From: Holothuria leucospilota
Taxonomy: Eukaryota
Length of the DNA: 64,000 bases
Reading direction: 5' to 3'
Assembly (NCBI GenBank): GCA_029531755.1
Contig: CM055976.1
Location: 6,784,493 to 6,848,492 of the forward strand
The position numbers and the translations under genes were made by a program. Shown piece after piece: positions 1,034 to 64,000 of the stretch (its first letter is position 1; the number at the start of each line of letters is the position of its first letter). Under the pieces are notes generated by a model, which searched no databases, was not told where the DNA came from, and worked only from the letters and a program-made list of their open reading frames with translations.

Positions 1034-1403
1034 TTTCGTAAATAGATGGATCACCCTTCTTATATACAGGTATAACTTTGGCTATTTTCAACTCATCGGG
1101 AACAATGCCTGAAACGAGCGAACAGTTTATGACATGACTTAGGGGTTTTGCTAAAAAGACAATGACTTTCCTAAGGATACTGGGCTTGATATTATCAAAA
1201 CCGGGGGATTTGTTTGGTTTAAGACAGGAAAGGGCAGTTTTAACAAGTGCAGCGTCGTTTGTAGGTGACATAAAAAGCGTGTGAGGATTTGGATTTTTAA
1301 GGTAATCATTAGCATTAGAGTTACATTTTATACGAGATGCCAAAGAAGGACCAATATTGGTGAAAAAAATGATTGAATCCATTCGCAATGACGTTAGGAT
1401 CAC
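1034..1403 (-). CDS. LINE ORF2 reverse transcriptase N-terminal fragment. Downstream of about 1034 the ORF is a reading-through artefact in minisatellite sequence
   Basis: Carries KSPGFDNIKPSILRK...PLSHVINCSLVSGIVPDELKIAKVIPVYKKGDPSIYENY. The RT normally continues with RPISL, but here the sequence switches to a tandem repeat. Confidence 0.7.
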
Positions 1404-1675
1404 TCGTTACTCCATTATTATGTTTGAAAGACGATGGATACGACAACTTATTAGTACCTTTTGTAAGACTTCATTAACAACCGTCCAAGTACGCTTCATA
1501 TGATATTTACATTTGTAGAATTTATCAGAGAAATAACGTTTCTTAGCAATACGAAGAATATGATTCAATTTATTACGGTAAGTACGAAAGTGGCTAAGTT
1601 TGTCAGGAGTAGGGTTCTTCAAGTACTTTTTATACATTTTATTTTTGCATTTGATTGATTGCAAAATACCACTGC

Positions 1676-2384
1676 TTATCCAGGGATGCCTTTTTTACGT
1701 CTCTTCCGCTTAGTGAAATAGAATAGAGGGAAACAAGTGTCATAGATATCACGAAAAGTAGAGTTAAAACGAGAAAACGCCGTAGTTACATCATTATCTG
1801 AGCAAATGAAGTCCCAGTTAAAATTACGACAACAAGTAACAAAATTATCGATATTCCTAGTCGAATAGTTCCTAGAATAATATCCATTATCATTGCTTTG
1901 TTTAGAAATGTCCAAACTTAGGAAAATCGGAAAGTGATCAGTGATATCAGTAATTAATATGCCTGAAACACAATGATTATCAACCCTGTTGGTGAATATG
2001 TTGTCGATTAACGAGGCAGATCTCTCATTTATACGTGTAGGTTTAGTTATAGTGGGTTCAAAGCTATTACTAACAATATTGCTAAGAAATTCATTGGTAC
2101 TATCTTTTAACAAATCAATATTGAAATCACCCATAATGTGACAGGGTTTACTTTCACTTGAAATCAAGTTCAAAATTTTATCAATGCAGTCATTAAAATC
2201 ACGGAGAGGACTCTGTGGTGGCCTATATATAACACCTACTATAACGTTTCTATTTCCTCCACCTTTTTGCGGGATTGTAAGTTCCACAAAAAGACTTTCG
2301 ATGATATCGCTAAAAAGACCAATGTCAGATCGCACAGTAAATTCTAATTCCTCATAAACATATAAACACACCCCTCCACCTTTT
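1676..2384 (-). CDS. LINE ORF2 endonuclease (EEP/APE) domain, middle to C-terminal part
   Basis: The ORF translation carries the KGGGV, ESLFVEL, IYRPP, GDFN and NIFTN motifs of LINE APE-type endonucleases. Confidence 0.75.
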
Positions 2385-2435
2385 TGATTCCTTGCCGAAG
2401 GCAGGCAAGGAATCTATGCGATGGTGATGTCGTGT

Positions 2436-2500
2436 GTGTGCGTATGTGTGTGCGTATGTGTGTATGTGTGTGTATGTGTGTATGTGTGTGTGTATGTGAC
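2436..2500. repeat. (TG)n / (TGTGTATG)n microsatellite inside the element
   Basis: Direct reading. Confidence 0.9.
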
Positions 2501-4130
2501 GCTTAGCTTGTAAACACGATATCTCCAGTTAGCAATGACTGACAGTTTTCATATTTAGTATATAGATTTGTCATGTTGAGAGGAAGAACCCTATTGTTTT
2601 TGGTGGAGGTCAAAGGTCATTTGAGGTCACCAGAGGTCAAAAACCGAAAACCTTGTAAACACGATATCTCAAGATAGCAATGACCGACACTTTTCATATT
2701 TGGTATACAGATTTGTCATGTCAAGAGGAAGAACCCTATTGATTTTGGTAGAGGTCAAAGGTCATCTGAGGTCACTGGAGGTTAAGCTGCAAAAACCTCG
2801 TAAATAGCTTGTAAACACGATATCTCAAGATGGCAGTGACCGACACTTTTCATATTTGGTATATAGATTTATCATGTTAAGAGGAAGAACCCTATTGTTT
2901 TTGGTAAAGGTCAAAGGTCATTTGAGGTCACCAGAGGTAAAAAACCGAAAACCTTGTAAACACGATATCTCAAGGTAGCAATGACTGACACTTTTCATAT
3001 TTGGTTTACAGACTTGTCATGTTGAGAGGAAGAACCCCATTGATTTTGATAGAGGTCAAAGGTCATCTGAGGTCACTGGAGGTTAAGCTGCGAAAACCTC
3101 GTAAATGGCTTGTAAACATGATATCTGAAGATAGCAATGACCAACACTTTTCATATTTGGTATGTAGATTTATCATGTTGAGAGGAAGAACCCTATTGTT
3201 TTTGGTAAAGGTCAAAGGTCATTTGAGGTCACCAGAGGTAAAAAACAGAAAACCTTGTAAACACAATATCTCAAGATAGCAATGACCGACACTTTTCATA
3301 TTTGGTATACAGATTTGTCATGTTGAGAGGGAGAACCCTATTGATTTTGGTAGAGGTCAAAGGTCATCTGAGGTCACTGGCAGTTAAGCTGCGAAAACCT
3401 TATAAACGGCTTGTAAACACAATATCTCAAGATAGCAATGACTGACAGTTTTCATATTCGGGATACAGATTTGTCATGTTGAGAGGAAGAACCCTATTGT
3501 TTTTGGTAAAGGTCAAAGTTCATTTGAGGTCACCAGAAGTAAAAGACTGAAAACCTTGTAATCACGATTTCTCAAAATAGGAGTGAAGGACACTTTTCAT
3601 ATTTGGTATACAGATTTGTCATGTCAAGAGGAAGAATGCTACTGTTTTTGTAGAGGTCAATGGTCATCTGAGGTCACTGGAGTTTAAACTGCAAAAGCCT
3701 CATAAACGGCTTGTAAACTCGATATCTCAAGATGGCAATGACCGACACTTTTCATATGTGGTATATAGATTTGTCATGTTGAGAAGAACCCTATTGTTTG
3801 CGGTAGAGGTCAAAGGTCATCTGAGGTCACCGGAGGTAAAACTGCGAAAAGCTTGTAAATCGCTTGTAATAATGATATCTCAAGATAGCAATGATAGACA
3901 CTTCATATTTAGTGTGTAGATTTGTCATGTGGAGAGGAAGAGCCCTATTGTTTTTGGTGAAGGTCAAAGGTCATTTGAGGTGTCTGGAGGTCAAAGACTG
4001 AAAATCTTGTAATCATGATATCTCAAGGTAGGAATGAAGGACACTTTTCATACATGGTATGTTGATTTGTCATGTTGAGAGAAAGAACCCAATTGTTTCT
4101 GGTAGAGGTCAAAGGTCATCTGAGGTCACT
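2500..4130. repeat. Satellite array. Monomers of about 148 and about 160 bp alternate, giving a higher-order repeat of about 305 bp with roughly 11 monomers
   Basis: The anchor ttgtaaacacgatatctcaagatagcaatgac recurs at 2507, 2655, 2808, 2955, 3107 and onward. A and B variants alternate: ...gaggtcaccagaggtcaaaaaccgaaaacc versus ...gaggtcactggaggttaagctgcaaaaacctcgtaaatagc. Confidence 0.85.
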
Positions 4131-4510
4131 GGAGGTCAAAAACAAAATTTCCTAAGAATTCCCAAGATCGTCATATGTGGTCACCAGAGGTCAAAAAGCA
4201 AAATTTCCCAAGAATTCCCAAGATTGTCATATGGGGTTACCACAAGTCAAAAGGCAAAATTTCCCAACAATTTCCAAGATTGTCATGGGGTCACCAGACA
4301 TAATAAAGCAAGAATTCCCAAGTGTCATTTGGGGTCACTAAAGGTCAGAAAGCAAAATTCCTCGAGAATTCCCAAGATCATCGTCTGGGGTCACTAAAGG
4401 TCAAAAAGCAAAATTTCCCAAGAATTCCCAAGATTGTCATCTGGGGTCACCAGAGGTCAAAAAGCAAATTTCCCAAGAATTTTCAAGATCCAAGATCCAT
4501 TGGAGGTCAG
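4130..4510. repeat. Short-period satellite of about 57-60 bp, derived from the 3' part of the large monomer (ggtcaccagaggtcaaaaagcaaaatttcccaagaattcccaagattgtcat...)
   Basis: Visible 57-60-bp periodicity. It shares ggtcaccagaggtcaaaaa with the 148-bp monomer. The same sub-array sits at the 3' end of copy 2, at 62590-62810. Confidence 0.8.
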
Positions 4511-4676
4511 AGGTCATTTGAAGTCATCAGAAGTTAAATACCAAATGCATTGAAAAACACGATATTTCAAGACAGGTATTAGATACTTGTAATACTTGTG
4601 AATTTGAGGGATAAACCTCAGTGCAACAAAGCATCCCCATTTGGCAAGGAATCACTAAGCCTTTGGGCTTTCTGGT

Positions 4677-5233
4677 TTATTATTCATGTTACATTCAACC
4701 ATTTTATAGTTACTAAGTTGGATAAGTGGGGGCAAACAATCACTGAACCATGTTTCTGTAAAGCCTAAGACGGTAAAAGTGTGGTCTAATATCGTTAAGA
4801 GGTTAGAAATGGAATCAAGGTTCTTTCTCAAGCTCCTGCTGTTTAGATGGAAAAGGGAAAAATCACCATGGGTAAGTTTATTAAAACTATCAATGTTGTA
4901 GTAATTACTGGAATCGATTGTGAATGTCTCATAGAGTGAAGAGAGACTTTGCGAGAGAAAATCACCACCTTGATTCATGGAGCGAGTGTCTTGAATTGCA
5001 TCTCTAAAGGCGTTATCATCAATTAAGTGATTAAATGGTAAATTAACACAACAGTCCCCGCAAGTCCAGGGCGAAATGGTACCGGTATTATTTTGGGTAA
5101 CGCATAAGTTGTGGAAATATTTTTTACAAATACAACATTTACTTACTAAACTTCTACTTGCTTCATAATCAATGGATCTTTTACACTTACTGCAGAAAAC
5201 AAACATAAATGAGAGTGACACACAAACAAACAA
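4677..5233 (-). mobile_element. 5' part of the same CR1/L2-like LINE ORF2. It holds a PHD-like Cys-rich zinc finger and the N-terminus of the APE endonuclease. The Helentron-like insertion separates it from 1034-2384
   Basis: ORF 4655-5233 (-) reads CSKCKRSID...CCICKKYFHNLC...WTCGDCC. Further on it reads FSLFHLNSRSLRKNLDSISNLLTILDHTFTVLGFTETWFSDC, the EN N-terminal signature (ETW motif). The last codons, ...KPESPKA, are read from element sequence. Together with 2384 the EN is complete except for about 8-10 residues. Confidence 0.7.
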
Positions 5234-5338: not shown

Positions 5339-6876
5339 TTGGACCCCAATATTGGGGCTACAGCAGTTATTGAATGTGACTATGTAAAAGGAGACAGTAT
5401 GGATGAGAATTTAGATAGCTCTTTTAGACAAGACAACGAGGATTTACTGTCACTTCCCCATATGGAACCTACCGAAACTATTGCAGATGTTGAAATTAAT
5501 CCTAACCTCCCATCAGAGCAAATTAGGCAGATTAAAAGAGTATTGGGAAATTTTCATGACATTCTGACTGACGTAACACTCCCTTACTCACCCACCAAAT
5601 TAATTTGACATCAGATGAACCTATTAGGGTGAAACAATACCCCCTCCCCCATGCTACGCAAGATGTGATACAGAAAGAAGTTGCAAAAATGTTGGAAATG
5701 GATGTTATTGAAAGGTCAAATTCACCATACTGTTCACCTGTTGTAATCGTTAAGAAAAAGGATGGAAGTAACAGATTTTGCGTGGATTACAGACGTTTAA
5801 ATAGAGTGACAATTTTCGATGCAGAACCTATGCCTAACCCAGATGAAATATTCGCACGTTTAGCTAACTCCAATTACTTTTCGAAATTAGACTTAAGCAA
5901 AGGTTATTGGCAAATACCCGTTGAAGAACATGCCAAACCATTGACTGCTTTTTCAACACCTTCAGGGTTATTTCAATTCAAGGTTTTACCCTTTGGCCTT
6001 GTTAACTCTTCAGCAACATTTAATCGTATGATGCGTATTTTATTGTTTGACCTAGACCATGTTGACAGTTATATTGATGATATTCTCATTTATACTTCCA
6101 CTTGGGAAAAACATATCGAAATTCTAGGGGAAATTTTGAAAAGGTTACGAAAAGCAAACCTTACAATTCGTCCTAGTAAATGTAGCCTGGGAATGGAAAA
6201 CATTGAATTTCTGGGACACATCATTAGCAGAGGGAAAGTATACCCCCAGGATTGTAATACAAACAAAATTCAGAATTCCCCTCGCCCTCAAACCAAAAAA
6301 CAGCTTCGTTCATTTCTGGGTCTGGCGGGCTATTACCGAAATTTTATCCCAAATTATGCTGCAATAGCCGCCCCACTTACAGACAAAACGAAGAATAAAG
6401 AACCAAACCAAATTGTTTGGGGAGATAGCCAAGAAATTGCTTTCTCCACTTTAAAGGAAAAGCTGACTAGAAAACCAATTCTTCACCTCCCAGATCTGTC
6501 CAAACAATTCACGCTTAGAACAGATGCCTCAGATATCGGTCTTGGTGCAGTCCTCCTTCAAAACTTCCATGACGAATTATTCCCCGTAGCGTTTGCTAGT
6601 CGGAAACTTTTGCCCAGGGAAAGGGCGTATTCAGTAATGGAAAGAGAGTGTCTAGGTGTTGTCTGGGGTGTAATCAAGTTTCAGAGATATTTATATGGTA
6701 AAGAGTTTGTCCTGCAAACGGACCACGAACCACTTGCATTTATGCAGAAATCCCGTATGACAAACAATCGTATTATGCGATGGGCACTAGCTTTACAGCC
6801 TTATAAGATAAGAATAGAAGCTATTAAAGGCTCTGAAAATGTAGGGGCCGATTTTTTGAGCCGTGTTGTAAATTAG
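5339..6876 (+). mobile_element. Ty3/gypsy-like LTR-retrotransposon pol fragment. It contains reverse transcriptase and RNase H only. No protease start, integrase or LTRs are visible
   Basis: ORF 5605-6876 carries the RT motifs SPYCSPVVIVKKKDGSNRFCVDYRRLN, LDLSKGYWQIP, FKVLPFGLVNSSATF, YIDDILIY and FLGHIIS. The RNase H motif TLRTDASDIGLGAVLLQ is also present. ORF 5339-5608 is the upstream pol part, joined with a frameshift near 5600. Confidence 0.8.
5605..6876 (+). CDS. pol polyprotein fragment (RT-RNase H) of the LTR retrotransposon
   Basis: Same motifs as the parent feature. A stop at 6876 is followed by no integrase. Confidence 0.75.
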   Translation: MTSDEPIRVKQYPLPHATQDVIQKEVAKMLEMDVIERSNSPYCSPVVIVKKKDGSNRFCVDYRRLNRVTIFDAEPMPNPDEIFARLANSNYFSKLDLSKGYWQIPVEEHAKPLTAFSTPSGLFQFKVLPFGLVNSSATFNRMMRILLFDLDHVDSYIDDILIYTSTWEKHIEILGEILKRLRKANLTIRPSKCSLGMENIEFLGHIISRGKVYPQDCNTNKIQNSPRPQTKKQLRSFLGLAGYYRNFIPNYAAIAAPLTDKTKNKEPNQIVWGDSQEIAFSTLKEKLTRKPILHLPDLSKQFTLRTDASDIGLGAVLLQNFHDELFPVAFASRKLLPRERAYSVMERECLGVVWGVIKFQRYLYGKEFVLQTDHEPLAFMQKSRMTNNRIMRWALALQPYKIRIEAIKGSENVGADFLSRVVN

Positions 6877-14129: not shown

Positions 14130-14505
14130 ACGTCGGAGCTTGCCTTGCAATCATAGGCCGGTCAGTTTAACCAGTGTTGTGTGCAAAGTTATGGAATCTG
14201 TAATCAAGGATTGTTTGCTTAAATATCTTTTAGATAATGGGTTACTCAATCTGTCACAGCATGGTTTTTTACCGAGTAGATCTTGTGTTACTAATTTACT
14301 AAGCTTTCTTGAGGATGTTTCCTTATCTCTTGACTGTGGTCACAGTGTTGATGTCATTTACCTTGATTTTTCAAAAGCCTTTGATAAAGTTCCATTAGGT
14401 AGACTTATGGTTAAACTGCATACTAGGTTAGGCATCAGGGGCAGTTGTGCTGACTGGATAAATTCATGGCTCAATGGTAGATCTCAGAGAGTTGTACGTT
14501 GTTAA
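14130..14505 (+). CDS. LINE RT fragment, N-terminal motifs
   Basis: Translation motifs as listed in the parent feature. Confidence 0.7.
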
Positions 14506-14865
14506 TGGTAATTTCTCTTCTTGGAAAGAAGTTACAAGTGGAGTTCCACAGGGTTCTGTTCTTGGCCCGCTTCTTTTCTTAATTTTCATCAATGATATTG
14601 ATAGCTCTCTCACATCTAGTATTAGTAAGTTCGCTGATGATACTAAGCTTTATAGGAAGGTTAGTGATAAGGATGATGCCTCATTACTGCAAAAAGACTT
14701 GGATAGGTTATTTTCATGGTCTCAGACTTGGCAAATGTCTTTTAATGCAGATAAGTGCAAAGTCCTTCACTTAAGTTGGTCCTAAAAATTTCAGCTATGA
14801 TTATAACATGAATGGTAGTATTCTGAGTGATGTGACTTTTGAGAAGGATCTGGGTGTAGTTATTG

Positions 14866-44910: not shown

Positions 44911-45641
44911 TGATTCTTTGCGTAAGCAAAAGGAATCTGTGATGATGTTTTTGCGTGTGTGTGAGTGTACGGTATGTGATGCTGGTTGTAAACATGATAT
45001 CTCAAGAATGTTAACCTTGAGTGATATCATACTTGGCATGCAGGTACCCCTTATTGAGTAGATGATCCCTATTGTTTTTGGTGGAGGTCAAAGGTCATTT
45101 GGTCAGGAGAGGTCAAAAGGTCAAAACCTTGTAAGAGCAATATCTCAAGAAGGGTAACTGTGCGGAATGTCATAGTTGGCATGTAGATTGCCCATAATAC
45201 AGTAAGTAGATGATCACTATTGTTTTTGATTGAGGTCAAAGGTCATTTGGGGTCACCAGAGGTCAAATGGTAAAAACCTTGGGAATTGCTTGTAAACATG
45301 ATATCTCAAGACAAATTGGTTTGAGGGATCTCATACTTACCTTGTAGATTGCCCATATTAAGCAGATGACCCCTATTGTTTTTGGTGGAAGTCGAAGGTC
45401 ATTTGGTCACCAGAGTTCAAAAGGTCAAAACTTGTAGACATGATATCTCAAGTAGGATAACTGTGAGGGATCTACCACTTGAAAGGTTTCAAAAGGTCAA
45501 AACCTTATTAACATGATATCTCAAGTAGGATAACTGTGAGGGAGCTTATGCTTGCCATGTGGGTATCATTTCATGTTTGTTACAATATATCCACATGGCA
45601 AGGAATCACTATGCCTTTTGGCTTTCTGGTTTGTAAAAGTA
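44911..45641 (+). mobile_element. Helentron-like element, copy 3, short and diverged. Termini are 5' tgattctttgcgtaagcaaaaggaatc and 3' ggcaaggaatcactatgccttttggctttctggtt. It carries about 4 satellite monomers
   Basis: It has the same terminal architecture as copies 1 and 2. The internal units ...ttgtttttggtggaggtcaaaggtcatttggtcaggagaggtcaaaaggtcaaaacc are related to the 148-bp monomer. Confidence 0.55.
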
Positions 45642-60017: not shown

Positions 60018-61040
60018 GTAAGTATATCTGGAAGCATACTGGTATGTCAATGCCCCCTCAAATCAGTATTGTAGCTGTAATCCCATGAAAAAGCCATGAA
60101 TTATACCCCCCCCCCCCCTTCATAATTTGTCTGTCTATGTAAGGACTTGATATACCTGGAAAAGGTAAGGCTGAATGCCAGTCAGCTGGCACAAATTTGG
60201 CAAGGTACTGAGGTTTAGCAAGAGAGAAATCAAGTTAGAAACCAAGAAAATGTAGGGCATCAAGTAGAAAAAGTACAGATGGCATCAAGATTATTAAGGC
60301 CTTTGGTGTTGGCCATTTTTAGGGGCATGAAGGCAAGGTAGGGGAACCCCAAAACCATGGCTTGTGGTGCATGTGGTCATTTCAAGCCCTGCCATGGGTA
60401 TAGCTAAGTGAAGATGGAGGTGCTCAAAATGTGTGTTTCATTGTATGGAGGCAATAAAAATAAAAAATTTTTACCCACAGTAGATTGATTTTAGAGCAAC
60501 TGAGCTTGTAAGTTTACCACGTTGGTAAAGCCTGAATGCACTTTAATTTTCTCTTCATAGATCTGTATTTTAGTTGGTCTGTATTTTCAAGCTGTCATTT
60601 ACCAGTATATCTTGATGTGTCACTAGAACACTATTTGTCTGATCATGTGTTGTTTGTAAATCATTGTGAGACTTGAGTTGATATCAATCAAACAACAGAC
60701 AAGGCCATCATAGATGTTGGTTGAATTTCATTTTTCCGATGATATTATGCCTATTTAGTTTTTATTGACTCAGCAAGAGAGTTAACTGTTATTAAGTGTG
60801 ACTCAGTTAGTACAAAAATACTTTTCAAGGCTCAAGCTGTTGATTTTAAAACATATAACTCAAATAGAGTTAACTGTGAAATCTGACTCAGTTTAACAGT
60901 TTTATAATGAGTAACTTCACTTCATGGTCCAGATTAAAGACCATAAGTAGGACTCAGTGTAGTTTTTGATTCCTTGCCGAAGGCAGGCAAGGAATCTATG
61001 CGATGGTGATGTCGTGTGTGTGTGTGTGTGCGTGTGTGTG

Positions 61041-61690
61041 CACTCACAGACACCTCCTTAGCGGGACATGGGCAGCCGGCGAGAACTAAGCTCTCGCATG
61101 TCTTTCCTAGCTCACGCGCGGCTCGAAACTGGCGTAGCTGCCTGAGAATTCCGTCACTGGAATGAGAAGTCTCGCGCGGCTGCACGTGCCTGCCTTGCGA
61201 GCAGCCCGCCCTCCAGACACGTACGTCTACCGGGTGAGTTGGAGGCCAGCCAAGCTCATGGGGAAATCCCGTGAATTCCTTACCGGGTCCTGTGTACGTG
61301 TACCGGTAAGGCAGCGAGGGTGCGTATGTGTGACCCGAAGCTGTGTGTGCATGTCTGAGGCTGCTGTGGGCATGTGTGTGCACTCACAGACACCTCCTTA
61401 GCGGGACATGGGCAGCCGGCGAGAACTAAGCTCTCGCACGTCTTTCCTAGCTCACGCGCGGCTCGAAACTGGCGTAGCTGCCTGAGAATTCCGTCACTGG
61501 AATGAGAAGTCTCGCGCGGCTGCACGTGCCTGCCTTGCGAGCAGCCCGCCCTCCAGACACGTACGTCTACCGGATGAGTTGGAGGTCAGCCAAGCTCATG
61601 GGGAAATCCCGTGAATTCCTTACCGGGTCCTGTGTACGTGTACTGGTAAGGCTGGGTGGGTGCGTATGTGTGTGTGTATGTGACGCCTAG
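61041..61690. repeat. Two near-identical tandem copies (period 340 bp) of a GC-rich, CpG-rich unit (gcactcacagacacctccttagcgggacatgggcagccggcgagaactaagctctcgca...). They are absent from copy 1
   Basis: 61041-61380 matches 61381-61690 with about 6 mismatches. Each unit is bounded by (TG)n. Copy 1 passes directly from (TG)n to ...tgtgacgcttagcttgtaaacacgat. Confidence 0.85.
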
Positions 61691-62590
61691 CTTGTAAACA
61701 CGATATCTCAAGATAGCAATGACCGACACTTTTATTATTTTGTATATAGATTTTTCATGTTAAAAGAAAGAAACCCATTGTTTTTGGTGGAGGTCAAAGG
61801 TCATTTGAGGTCACCAGAGTTCAACAACTGAGAACCTTATAAACACAATATCTCAAGATAGCAACGATGTACACTTTTCATATTTGGTGTACAGATTTGT
61901 CATGTCAAAAGGAAGAACCCTATTCTTTTTAGTAGAGGTCAAAGGTCATCCGAGGTCACCAGAGGTGAAACTGTGAAAACCTCATAAACGGCTTGTAAAC
62001 ACGATATCTCAAGATAGCAATGACTGACACTTTTCATGTTTGGTATATAGATTTGTCATGTTGAGAGAAAGAACCCTATTGTATTTGGTGAAGGTCAAAG
62101 GTCATTTGAGTTCACCGGAGGTAAAAGCTGAAAAGCTTGTAATCACGATATCTCAAGATAGGAATGACCGACACTTTTCATATTTGGTATCTAGAGTTGT
62201 CATGTTGAGAGAAAGAACCCTATTGTATTTGGTGGAGGTCAAATGTCATTTGAGGTCACCAGAGGTCAGAGACTGAAAACCTTGAGATCACGATAAATCA
62301 AGATAGGAATGACTGATATAGATTTGTCATGTTGAGAGGAAGAATGCTATTGTTTTTGGTAGAGGTCAAAGGTCATGTGATGTCACCAGAGGTCAAAAAC
62401 CGAAAACTTTGTAAACACGATATCTCAAGTTAGCAGTGACCAACACTTTCATATTTGGTATACAGATTTGTCATGTCAAGAGAAAGAACCCAATTGTTGT
62501 TGGTGAAGGTCAAAGGTCATTTAGGGTCACAGGAGCTAAAAAACTGAAAAGCTTGTAGTGACAATTTCTCAAGGTAGGAATGATGGACAC
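61690..62590. repeat. Satellite array of about 6 monomers, the same 148/160-bp family as 2500-4130
   Basis: The anchor cttgtaaacacgatatctcaagatagcaatgac recurs. A and B monomer variants alternate. Confidence 0.85.
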
Positions 62591-62810
62591 TTTTGATATT
62601 TAGTAAAATTTCCCAACAGTTCCCAAGATTGTTGTATGGGGTCACCAGAGGTCAAAAAGCAAAATTTCCCAAAGAATTCCCAAGATCGTAATCTGGGGTC
62701 ACCAGAGGTCAAAAGCAAAATTTTCCGAGTATTCCCAAGATCTTAATCTGGGGTAACCAGAGGTCAAAAAGCAAAATTTGCCAAGAATTTTCAAGATCCA
62801 AGATCCATTG
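62590..62810. repeat. 57-60-bp sub-satellite (ggtcaccagaggtcaaaaagcaaaatttcccaa(a)gaattcccaagatcgtaatctgg)
   Basis: Same periodic unit as 4130-4510. Confidence 0.8.
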
Positions 62811-64000
62811 GAGTTGAATCCCTTTCAAGACACTTCTGTTTTCCTTTTTGTTATATTTGGTTGTGTTCAGAGGTCATATGAGGTTAGCAGGGGTCAAATT
62901 GTTAAAACATCATAAAATGATGTATTCAAGAAAGATAAATTTGAGGGATAAAGCTCAGTGCAACAAAGCATCCCCATTCGGCAAGGAATCACTAAGCCTT
63001 CGGGCTTTCTGGTTGTTAAATGTGACTCAGTTAAGGAGGTAAAACACTTTGTGGCCTAGATGCCCTTCATGGCCCAGCTACCCTTCATGGCCCTTCATGG
63101 CCCAGCTTCACAGCCTAGTGGTTTTCGTTGCCTGCATATACTTCATGGCCCAGACTTTTTGCTGTGAGTGACTGAGTTCTGGTGTGAAAATATCTTTCTT
63201 TTTTATGCTCCAGGATTTTAGTTTATTGAATCTGTGCATGTTAGCACTTAATTCTTTGGCTTTATGAAATAAATATTTATTTGAAATAATACAGTATGTT
63301 ACATTGTTTGATTTAGAATACCTATTGTTAGATACAAGTAAATGGAATAAAATGTAGTAAATGAAACTAAAATGAATAATCTGGAAGTGAAAAGAAGGGC
63401 CTAAGCTCAAATCAAGCTTTGATATGTTAGAGGGGTACTTATTCTAAGCAATCTTGTGAAATTTCTATTGAAATCCGATGTGTGGTTCTCAAGATATCAG
63501 CAGATAAAGTTGTCACATTTTCAACAGAAAGTGAACTTGGAGCAAGCACATATTATGTCATAGCCTCACATTAATTAGCAGTCTTTTGTTTTTCTTTAAA
63601 CTTTATCACCAATTTTCTCCTGAACAAGCAAATGTTATTAGAATACGATTGCATGAGAGGCATGAGAAAATTACAAACTTCACATTCCTAACGGGGAGGT
63701 CCTATCCCTATTAATTTCAAGTTCAACACAACAGACTGAAAAAATAAAAGAAACAAAGCACTCCTTATCAATGTGAGGAAGTGATATCAGGGAGCTGCAG
63801 CCTAATGATTTAACTCCTCCTTGCCTCAAGCTCACTTTGCTTTACAAATTTAGTTACTTCTTTTGCTTATATCTCGAGTAATACATGTCCAGTTTGAATG
63901 AAAATTTTACCAAAATGCATAGATTTAGTTCCTCTTTCACAGATGAAAAGAAAATTTTTGCTTAAACCCTTCTTTTAAGAATCATTGTCCAAGGGCTAGT

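Follow-up and report, generated by a model that had tools for sequence, protein, structure and literature searches.

A probable seamless insertion of a satellite-carrying HINE into the endonuclease gene of an older, dead LINE

Introduction

HINEs, the non-autonomous Helentrons, have been described in detail in bivalves and arthropods. The left flank of Cg_HINE, from Crassostrea gigas, is composed of a subTIR of 11-12 bp, an IR located 1-12 bp away and a microsatellite; the interior consists of a segment that varies and then of tandem repeats (satellite-like, about 150-170 bp), which sometimes form two arrays; and the right flank is short, with a palindrome after the 3' subTIR (Vojvoda Zeljko et al., 2020, PMC7492417). 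The target of Cg_HINE is oligo-T or TT, and no target-site duplication (TSD) is produced (PMC7492417). In Drosophila, mite and mosquito, the subTIRs of DINE-1/HINEs measure at least 11 bp and lie 2-4 nt in from the 5' end; an IR adjoins the 5' subTIR, and the elements also have a microsatellite, repeats in the centre and a stem-loop at the 3' side. They insert in T-rich targets without modifying them, and the terminal T's, which belong to the element, vary in number (Thomas et al., 2014, PMC4067079).

Here we study the window, that is, the whole 64-kb stretch of DNA analysed, in which a LINE remnant on the minus strand is interrupted by an element on the plus strand, HINE copy 1 (2384-4675; 2292 bp under the best assignment of T's). 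An earlier note, made from the letters of this DNA, had called this element Helentron-like, a name that holds structurally, given that all the HINE features listed in PMC4067079 and PMC7492417 are present. We conclude that this satellite-carrying HINE very probably inserted seamlessly in an oligo-T of the endonuclease gene of an older, dead LINE.

Results

HINE copy 1 lies in its canonical orientation on the plus strand, antisense to the LINE. Its core extends from 2386 to 4675 (2290 bp), to which two of the eight flanking T's have to be added; which two of those at 2381-2385 and 4676-4678 belong to the element is ambiguous inside the T runs. The ends of the element read (T)nGATTCC... and ...TCTGG(T)n, the right terminus being ...AAGCCTTTGGGCTTTCTGG. 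At the left, the 5' subTIR GATTCCTTGCC (2386-2396, 11 bp) starts 2 nt inside the inferred 5' end; after a 7-nt spacer comes the complementary IR GGCAAGGAATC (2404-2414). Together (2386-2414) they form a perfect 11-bp hairpin (dG -11.8 kcal/mol, z = -4.2). A (TGTGTGTA)n-like microsatellite (2431-2498) belongs to the same flank. Most of the length of the element is tandem repeat: a central satellite-like array (2504-4143) with a monomer of about 145 bp (301-bp dimer x 5.5, 86% matches), and a second array (4115-4490) of a 56-bp unit repeated seven times. The right flank ends (4643-4675) with the 3' subTIR GGCAAGGAATC (4643-4653), an 11/11 inverted match to the 5' one, the palindrome AAGCC-TTTG-GGCTT (4657-4670), whose 5-bp stem is thermodynamically undistinctive (z = -0.4), and the terminal TCTGG (4671-4675).

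The element is not alone in the window. A second copy (60963-63014, plus strand) has the same termini: five T's, the subTIR at 60968-60978 and the IR at 60986-60996 on one side, and the 3' subTIR at 62980-62990, a TCTGG end at 63012 and TT on the other. The subTIR/IR hairpin is identical in both copies (z = -5.3 in copy 2), the tandem arrays of copy 1 are also found in copy 2, and no TSD is seen at copy 2. A third copy, partial or diverged, is represented by its 3' end only (45597-45632, plus strand), with an identical 3' subTIR and a TCTGG end at 45629 followed by TTT; no matching 5' end was found within the window. The 3' palindrome is shared by copies 1 and 2, and by copy 3 with one stem mismatch. 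Similarity between copies 1 and 2 begins exactly at the T at 2381, and that of copy 1 to copies 2 and 3 stops at the T at 4677; it is confined between the T runs, and the flanks of the copies are unrelated to each other. The subTIR pattern occurs seven times in the window versus 0.85 expected, every time at HINE ends. No further HINE copies or termini were found in the viral contigs or homologous loci scanned.

The 5' part of the interrupted LINE (4676-5233, minus strand) carries the N-terminal 62 residues of an AP-type endonuclease, its N-terminal quarter, including the catalytic N (in HLNSRS) and the E in TETW; a C1/PHD-like zinc finger that stays below threshold lies at about 5060-5233. Its translation runs ...HLNSRSLRKN...GFTETWFSDCLPPLIQLSNYKMVECNMNNK, and its terminus is ...NYKMVECNMNNK, with AAA as last codon (4678-4676). 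On the other side of the element (2383-1676, minus strand) come the C-terminal three quarters of the endonuclease and the start of a linker. This part begins with KGGGVCLYVYEE... and contains KGGGVCLYV...GDFN...PTR...LIDNIF...TDHFPI; its translation reads KGGGVCLYVYEELEF...ESLFVEL...VGVIYRPP...GDFN...TDHFPI. The earlier note had let the LINE frame resume with (N)(Q), a reading that we abandon: what these codons (2389-2384) translate, in the frame of the LINE, is the end of the element: two T's and then the first bases of the subTIR (GATT...).

The frame of this C-terminal part is terminated near 1690, where an A run contains a 1-nt frameshift. The remnant that follows (1035-1694, minus strand) comprises the linker PWISSGILQSIKCKNKMYKKY... 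and the start of the reverse transcriptase, ...IAKVIPVYKKGDPSIYENY, with two more compensating frameshifts at about 1462 and about 1368. Only the first 12 or so residues of the RT domain (RVT_1) are left, the last being ...YENY (1035), directly ahead of the expected RPISLL. The RT was not called in a Pfam search of the LINE fragment of the window, and no continuation of it was found within the 64 kb, the 3' part of this copy being absent from the window. Homologous loci with the same endonuclease run on into a full RVT_1 (for instance L006, E = 2.4e-38). Because of the three frameshifts, the replacement of a conserved Arg by Met and the loss of nearly all of the RT, this LINE copy is dead.

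When the two halves, which share strand and frame, are joined as NNK|KGGGV, they give a single uninterrupted endonuclease. The joined protein has one Pfam Exo_endo_phos match over the joint (residues 112-319, profile positions 3-204, E = 1.6e-8; 35 bits for PF03372, with a cut-off of 24.5), whereas the match of the C fragment by itself begins at profile position 71. A search of 5.8 billion proteins retrieved 499 homologues (best E = 7.5e-69), many of them covering 96-100% of the query, and the joint is gap-free against 24 of the 25 closest, whose consensus there is R-k-k-k-GGGV. This agrees with the earlier note, which had anticipated a junction of the form RKDR..KKGGGV, with little or nothing deleted. 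Alignment A1, query row included, has 19 invariant columns; all are retained and divided between both halves, among them the catalytic N7, E36, D148, D189, D211 and H212. In an HMM built from the 25 homologues, leaving the query out, the N fragment occupies positions 58-119 and the C fragment those from 120 onward; together with the single Pfam domain over the joint, this bears out the proposal that the two pieces are adjacent in one endonuclease. The 6-T join obtained the top HMM score (363.4 bits versus 357.5-359.3 for alternative joins). With tblastn, the homologue residues between the matches of the two halves correspond exactly to NNK|K; 80 metagenome loci are similar to the joined protein (21-49% identity), and in 53 metagenomic LINE loci both halves fall within one HSP.

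Structural comparisons agree with this picture. A search of the PDB with the single joined sequence gave no match but a profile search did, and the endonuclease profile aligns to the human L1 endonuclease with no indel at the joint. The AlphaFold model of the rejoined endonuclease has a mean pLDDT of 86.9 (88-91 around the joint) and places the joint in a predicted turn between strands 52-57 and 67-72; its best fold matches are the solved LINE-1 and TRAS1 endonucleases. The proteins P0002 and P0001 are at the top of both lists when homologues are ranked by identity to the N or to the C fragment. The identities of both fragments to the 25 homologues are not significantly correlated (rho = 0.20, p = 0.33), and for this reason we left the correlation out of the evidence. 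The search of 5.8 billion proteins yielded no LINE relative closer than about 43-51% identity, and within the window the joined protein had no tblastn match other than itself. As these searches gave no close relative of the LINE family, the contiguity of the halves rests on relatives at 35-45% identity.

With the LINE ORF standing in for the empty site of HINE copy 1, the chimeric empty site can be written on the minus strand as ...AACTATAAAATGGTTGAATGTAACATGAATAATAAA|AAAGGTGGAGGGGTGTGTTTATATGTTTATGAGGAA..., where AATAATAAAAAAGGTGGA is the 6-T site and AATAATAAAGGTGGA a 3-T variant. The occupied site has five plus three T's and the inferred empty site six, hence the attribution of two T's to the element. 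According to this reconstruction, the flanks share no repeat except T's, a TSD is absent, and the loss amounts to 0 bp (one codon at most). The loss of up to 25-30 bp allowed for in the earlier note was thus an overestimate, as nothing is missing at the joint; its claim that the boundaries were pinned to 2 bp is roughly right, in that they are fixed as far as the T runs (2381-2385 and 4676-4678) and no further.

Discussion

Our results suggest a simple history. An APE-type LINE copy, already fragmentary, would have been present on the minus strand, and a HINE would then have integrated in a plus-strand run of six T's, which in the LINE read AAA-AAA and encode Lys-Lys in a beta-hairpin turn of its endonuclease. 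Integration would have been cut-free, without target duplication or deletion, adding the 2290-bp core and two terminal T's. By analogy with the rest of the family, transposition may have proceeded by a rolling-circle mechanism with a single-strand intermediate, the Rep/helicase(/endonuclease) functions being supplied in trans by an autonomous element; no such partner was found among the five ORFs of at least 180 aa in the window. In nested insertions ("transposition in transposition") the interrupting element is younger than the interrupted copy. Here the LINE halves are adjacent and are split by a mobile element found elsewhere with different flanks, and therefore the LINE copy predates the HINE insertion, as had been proposed. 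This dating orders these two insertion events only, not the whole families.

Other explanations have to be weighed against this one. Canonical Helitrons have 5'-TC and 3'-CTRR ends, insert at A/T and lack inverted repeats, and TIR-type MITEs have terminal inverted repeats flanked by a TSD. The insert does not conform to the former, because its ends are (T)nGATTCC.../...TCTGG(T)n with neither 5'-TC nor 3'-CTRR, its target is a T run rather than A|T, and subTIRs are present. It does not conform to the latter either: no TSD exists at copy 1, as judged from the LINE reconstruction, or at copy 2, and the inverted repeats are subterminal and accompanied by an adjoining IR hairpin. That the bivalve pearl and MgE elements were first described as MITE-like (PMC7492417) might lend some credit to such an identity, and the dominance of tandem repeat in the insert to that of an expanded satellite array. 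Yet expansion of an array does not by itself account for the insert, which has defined non-repeat flanks that are shared with other copies. We hold it very improbable that the insert is anything other than Helentron-derived. Still more improbable, to our mind, is that two different LINE copies contributed the endonuclease fragments and were brought together by a rearrangement or an assembly join. The lack of an intact copy of the same family for direct comparison and the absence of a significant correlation between the similarity profiles of the fragments would fit such an origin. Against it, the break points agree to the residue (HMM 119|120) with strand and frame preserved, and such a coincidence of two break points placed at random along an ORF of ~1000 codons has a chance of order 1e-3 by our own estimate; the proteins most similar to one fragment (P0002 and P0001) are also the most similar to the other; and the interruption boundary is exactly that of a multi-copy element.

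The least improbable alternative keeps the nested insertion and changes the T count: the LINE would have had three T's (...NNK-GGGV) and the HINE would have brought five terminal T's instead of two. The resulting join, with one Lys, is likewise in frame. Exactly five T's precede the 5' subTIR in both full copies, and Helentrons have been reported with 2-5 terminal T's that vary between copies (PMC4067079). The loop at the joint varies by 1-3 residues among more distant relatives, which makes a one-codon difference possible, and it is one residue shorter in 14 of 53 of them. Nevertheless, the shorter loop is found in none (0/25) of the closest homologues, and the HMM score of the 3-T join is about 6 bits below that of the 6-T join. 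We regard this count as unlikely, and retain an insertion in six T's by an element carrying two.

The seamless insertion of a HINE in a LINE is an ordinary nested-transposon event, of small practical value, and it neither opens nor settles an outstanding question. What it offers is a LINE reading frame that acts as a built-in empty site for HINE copy 1, one relative age point, and defined HINE ends that are useful for repeat annotation. Two larger claims would go beyond this: that the LINE represents an undescribed clade of marine invertebrates with a zinc finger-endonuclease fusion and, separately, that the HINE is a new family whose arrays seed host satellite DNA. We judge them improbable. 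The best named relatives of the LINE are from sea cucumber and sea urchin, and its motifs give the impression of a CR1/L2/Jockey-like element.

Compared with known systems, the rejoined protein resembles the APE-type LINE endonucleases (human L1 EN, 1VYB/7N8S; TRAS1 EN, 1WDU) in its complete fold and set of catalytic motifs, with an identity to the solved structures of only about 18%; its clade differs from the L1 and TRAS1 endonucleases by the C1/PHD-like zinc finger in frame upstream. As for the HINE, chance primer matches were all that its terminal sequences gave in the full-text literature. In the portion of the supplementary files of PMC7492417 that was covered, GATTCCTTGCC, GGCAAGGAATC and the end strings do not appear, and shorter sub-strings of both occur in tandem-repeat array sequences. 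The module order of copy 1 is identical to that of Cg_HINE and of the bivalve pearl/MgE/DTC84-type elements, a likeness of architecture rather than evidence of family identity. The distance from the 3' subTIR to the 3' end is about 22-25 nt, versus 38-60 in mite families (PMC4067079). Like DINE-1/HINEs, copy 1 has a subTIR close to the inferred 5' end, at 2 nt, and carries two T's, and its insertion in oligo-T without duplication or deletion, together with these approximately two terminal T's, agrees with the published behaviour of Helentrons.

Results

The endonuclease of a LINE is divided on the minus strand by a 2.3-kb repeat-rich block. Its N fragment (5233..4676) is an open frame ending in ...FSLFHLNSRSLRKN...GFTETWFSDCLPPLIQLSNYKMVECNMNNK, and past 4676 this frame continues for a few codons of unrelated sequence before reaching a stop. 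The C fragment runs from 2383 down to 1676 and reads KGGGVCLYVYEELEF...ESLFVEL...VGVIYRPP...IMGDFNIDLL...KPTRI...LIDNIFTN...ITDHFPIF. An earlier note had described both fragments correctly, minus-strand translation giving the same motifs on either side of the block, except that the "(N)(Q)" it assigned to the LINE at 2389-2384 comes from translating the inserted element's end in the frame of the LINE.

Pfam finds one Exo_endo_phos domain when the fragments are joined as ...NMNNK|KGGGV..., with residues 112-319 matching profile positions 3-204. Taken separately, the C fragment matches from profile position 71 onward, and the N fragment is too short for a score. A search of a large protein collection returned 499 homologues of the joined protein (best E = 7.5e-69), many of them covering 96-100% of the query within a single protein. 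The 25 best of the full-length hits, at 35-45% identity, were aligned with the query; the joint was gap-free against 24 of them (for example NYSLIDHHRTH-RKGGGICLFV), the remaining one being longer by a single residue. All 19 invariant columns, defined with the query row included, are kept and are divided between the fragments, with N7 and E36 on the N fragment and D148, D189, D211 and H212 on the C fragment. In an HMM built from the 25 homologues with the query left out, the N fragment occupies positions 58-119 and the C fragment begins at 120, so that the two are exactly adjacent. The NNK|KGGG join scores 363.4 bits in this HMM without any indel, against 357.5 for NNK|GGG and 358-359 for joins that retain Q or NQ, each of which needs an indel.

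Individual homologues, compared with the window by tblastn, have the same residue count between their two matches, and the strand and frame of the two halves agree. Both halves also fall within one HSP in 53 metagenomic LINE loci, among which the joint loop differs by 1-3 residues only in the more distant ones, and human LINE-1 endonuclease compared with the clade profile shows no indel at the joint. The AlphaFold model of the joined sequence (mean pLDDT 86.9; 88-91 near the joint) places the joint in a turn between strands 52-57 and 67-72, and its closest structural matches are the solved LINE-1 and TRAS1 endonucleases. On all these grounds, the N and C fragments are neighbouring parts of a single endonuclease. 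The rejoining proposed earlier is thereby borne out, and the 25-30 bp of loss it allowed for comes down to none, or at most one codon, given the gap-free joint and the adjacency in the HMM.

Defined ends bound the interrupting block and are found again elsewhere in the window, in copy 2 (60963-63014) and, for the 3' end, in a third copy (45597-45632). Copies 1 and 2 are identical over 60 consecutive columns from exactly T 2381, with unrelated sequence upstream, and the 3' ends of all three copies match through ...TCTGGTT and diverge after it. On the plus strand, copy 1 opens with a T run 5' of the subterminal inverted repeat (subTIR) GATTCCTTGCC (2386-2396). After a 7-nt spacer comes its complementary inverted repeat (IR) GGCAAGGAATC (2404-2414; hairpin -11.8 kcal/mol, z = -4.2), then a (TGTGTGTA)n microsatellite (2431-2498), a tandem array of a 145-bp monomer in 301-bp dimers (2504-4143), a second array with a 56-bp unit (4115-4490) and the 3' subTIR GGCAAGGAATC (4643-4653), which repeats the 5' subTIR perfectly in inverted orientation. 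The palindrome AAGCC-TTTG-GGCTT (4657-4670), which is weak (5-bp stem, z = -0.4), precedes TCTGG and the final T run.

At the occupied site, TCTGG is followed by three T's (4676-4678), and five more (2381-2385) stand 5' of the subTIR. Six T's, read on the LINE strand as AAA AAA (Lys-Lys), are what the reading frame of the LINE and the loop length in its closest homologues require of the empty site; a 2290-bp core and two T's, 2292 bp together, therefore came with the element. Which two of the eight flanking T's it owns is ambiguous within the runs; with both at the 5' end, the subTIR lies 2 nt from the terminus, within the published 2-4 nt range (PMC4067079). An empty site of three T's, encoding one Lys and receiving an element with five, would also be in frame, and is a minority possibility set against the homologues' loop length. 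The flanks of copy 1 have no common repeat apart from the T's, hence no target-site duplication (TSD). A MITE was rejected for this lack of a TSD, and a canonical Helitron for the lack of TC...CTRR ends and of an A|T target.

The other copies differ internally. Copies 1 and 2 share 94-96% identity in their flanks, and copy 2 holds, between microsatellite and tandem array, a GC-rich 340-bp unit (x 1.9, 97% identity, 61025-61672) that is missing from copy 1 and has no Rfam match. Both flanks of copy 2 (60940-60962 and 63015-63045) contain the 8-mer ACTGAGTC, and further out CCATGAAG; these are not a TSD because they do not adjoin the element ends, and copy 2 may lie inside another repeat. Copy 3 (45288-45632) has the 3' subTIR and end of the others, shorter and different internal repeats, and no recognisable 5' subTIR or IR within the window; either the copy is truncated at its 5' end or it comes from a different subfamily.

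The LINE copy is a dead remnant. Its frame is shifted by 1 nt near 1690 and twice more, near 1462 and 1368, by shifts that compensate each other, and Met replaces a near-invariant Arg just before the joint. This LINE is cut at 1035 after ...VYKKGDPSIYENY, about 12 residues inside the RT domain and directly before RPISLL, which comes next in homologous loci. The window contains neither an RT continuation nor further copies of this LINE, and the protein collection and metagenome loci searched yielded no close relative. A LINE-type RT remnant at 14155-14770 (+), with one frameshift and 30-37% identity to the RT of a homologous LINE locus, was rejected as the missing part since it lies on the opposite strand.

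Adjoining the break, 660-1035 consists of 21-bp tandem units with a perfect 15-bp hairpin (GTGAGCCTTTCGGCG/CGCCGAAAGGCTCAC, 707-721/733-747) and, 7 nt from the break, a near-identical third arm (1006-1020). Possibly a second HINE-like element, small and of a different family, inserted here; neither the far end of the block nor the remainder of the LINE was found. Immediately upstream of the endonuclease and in frame, a CxxC...H..C...CxxC zinc finger (C1/PHD-like; 5060-5233, minus strand) matches Pfam below threshold (C1_1 E = 0.002, PHD E = 0.08), and the same order occurs in three homologous proteins (P0008, P0011, P0022). A Ty3/Gypsy-type pol fragment (5339-6876, plus strand; RVT_1 E = 8.7e-37, RT_RNaseH E = 3e-34) adjoins the LINE's 5' end, and its gag/protease part is missing from the expected upstream position, so one element, LINE or Gypsy, truncates or interrupts its neighbour.

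Discussion

A multi-copy element with HINE ends lies inside one endonuclease ORF, with no loss and no duplication. It follows directly from this nesting that the LINE copy came first and the HINE second, as the earlier note had held; the dating is only relative, this LINE having no consensus for comparison. What is known of the family makes it probable that an autonomous Helentron mobilised the HINE in trans, by rolling-circle transposition with a single-stranded intermediate, and that the nick lay within a T run; the latter would account for the variable terminal T's (PMC4067079).

HINEs, non-autonomous Helentron derivatives, are known in Drosophila (DINE-1), mites and mosquitoes (PMC4067079), and the oyster Cg_HINE elements bear satellite-like arrays (PMC7492417). 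They target oligo-T/TT, leave the target site unmodified and own a variable count of terminal T's (PMC4067079, PMC7492417). The subTIR and end sequences of copy 1 were not found in the supplementary data of PMC7492417 or in the searchable literature, so that, by sequence, this HINE may be a family of its own. The modules of copy 1 match the published architecture one for one (DINE-1, mite and mosquito elements, PMC4067079; Cg_HINE, PMC7492417), and the 340-bp unit of copy 2 occupies the place of the 10-500 bp hypervariable segment of Cg_HINEs. The nested insertion is ordinary and useful for annotation; it adds one more example of a well-known relationship between two well-known kinds of element.
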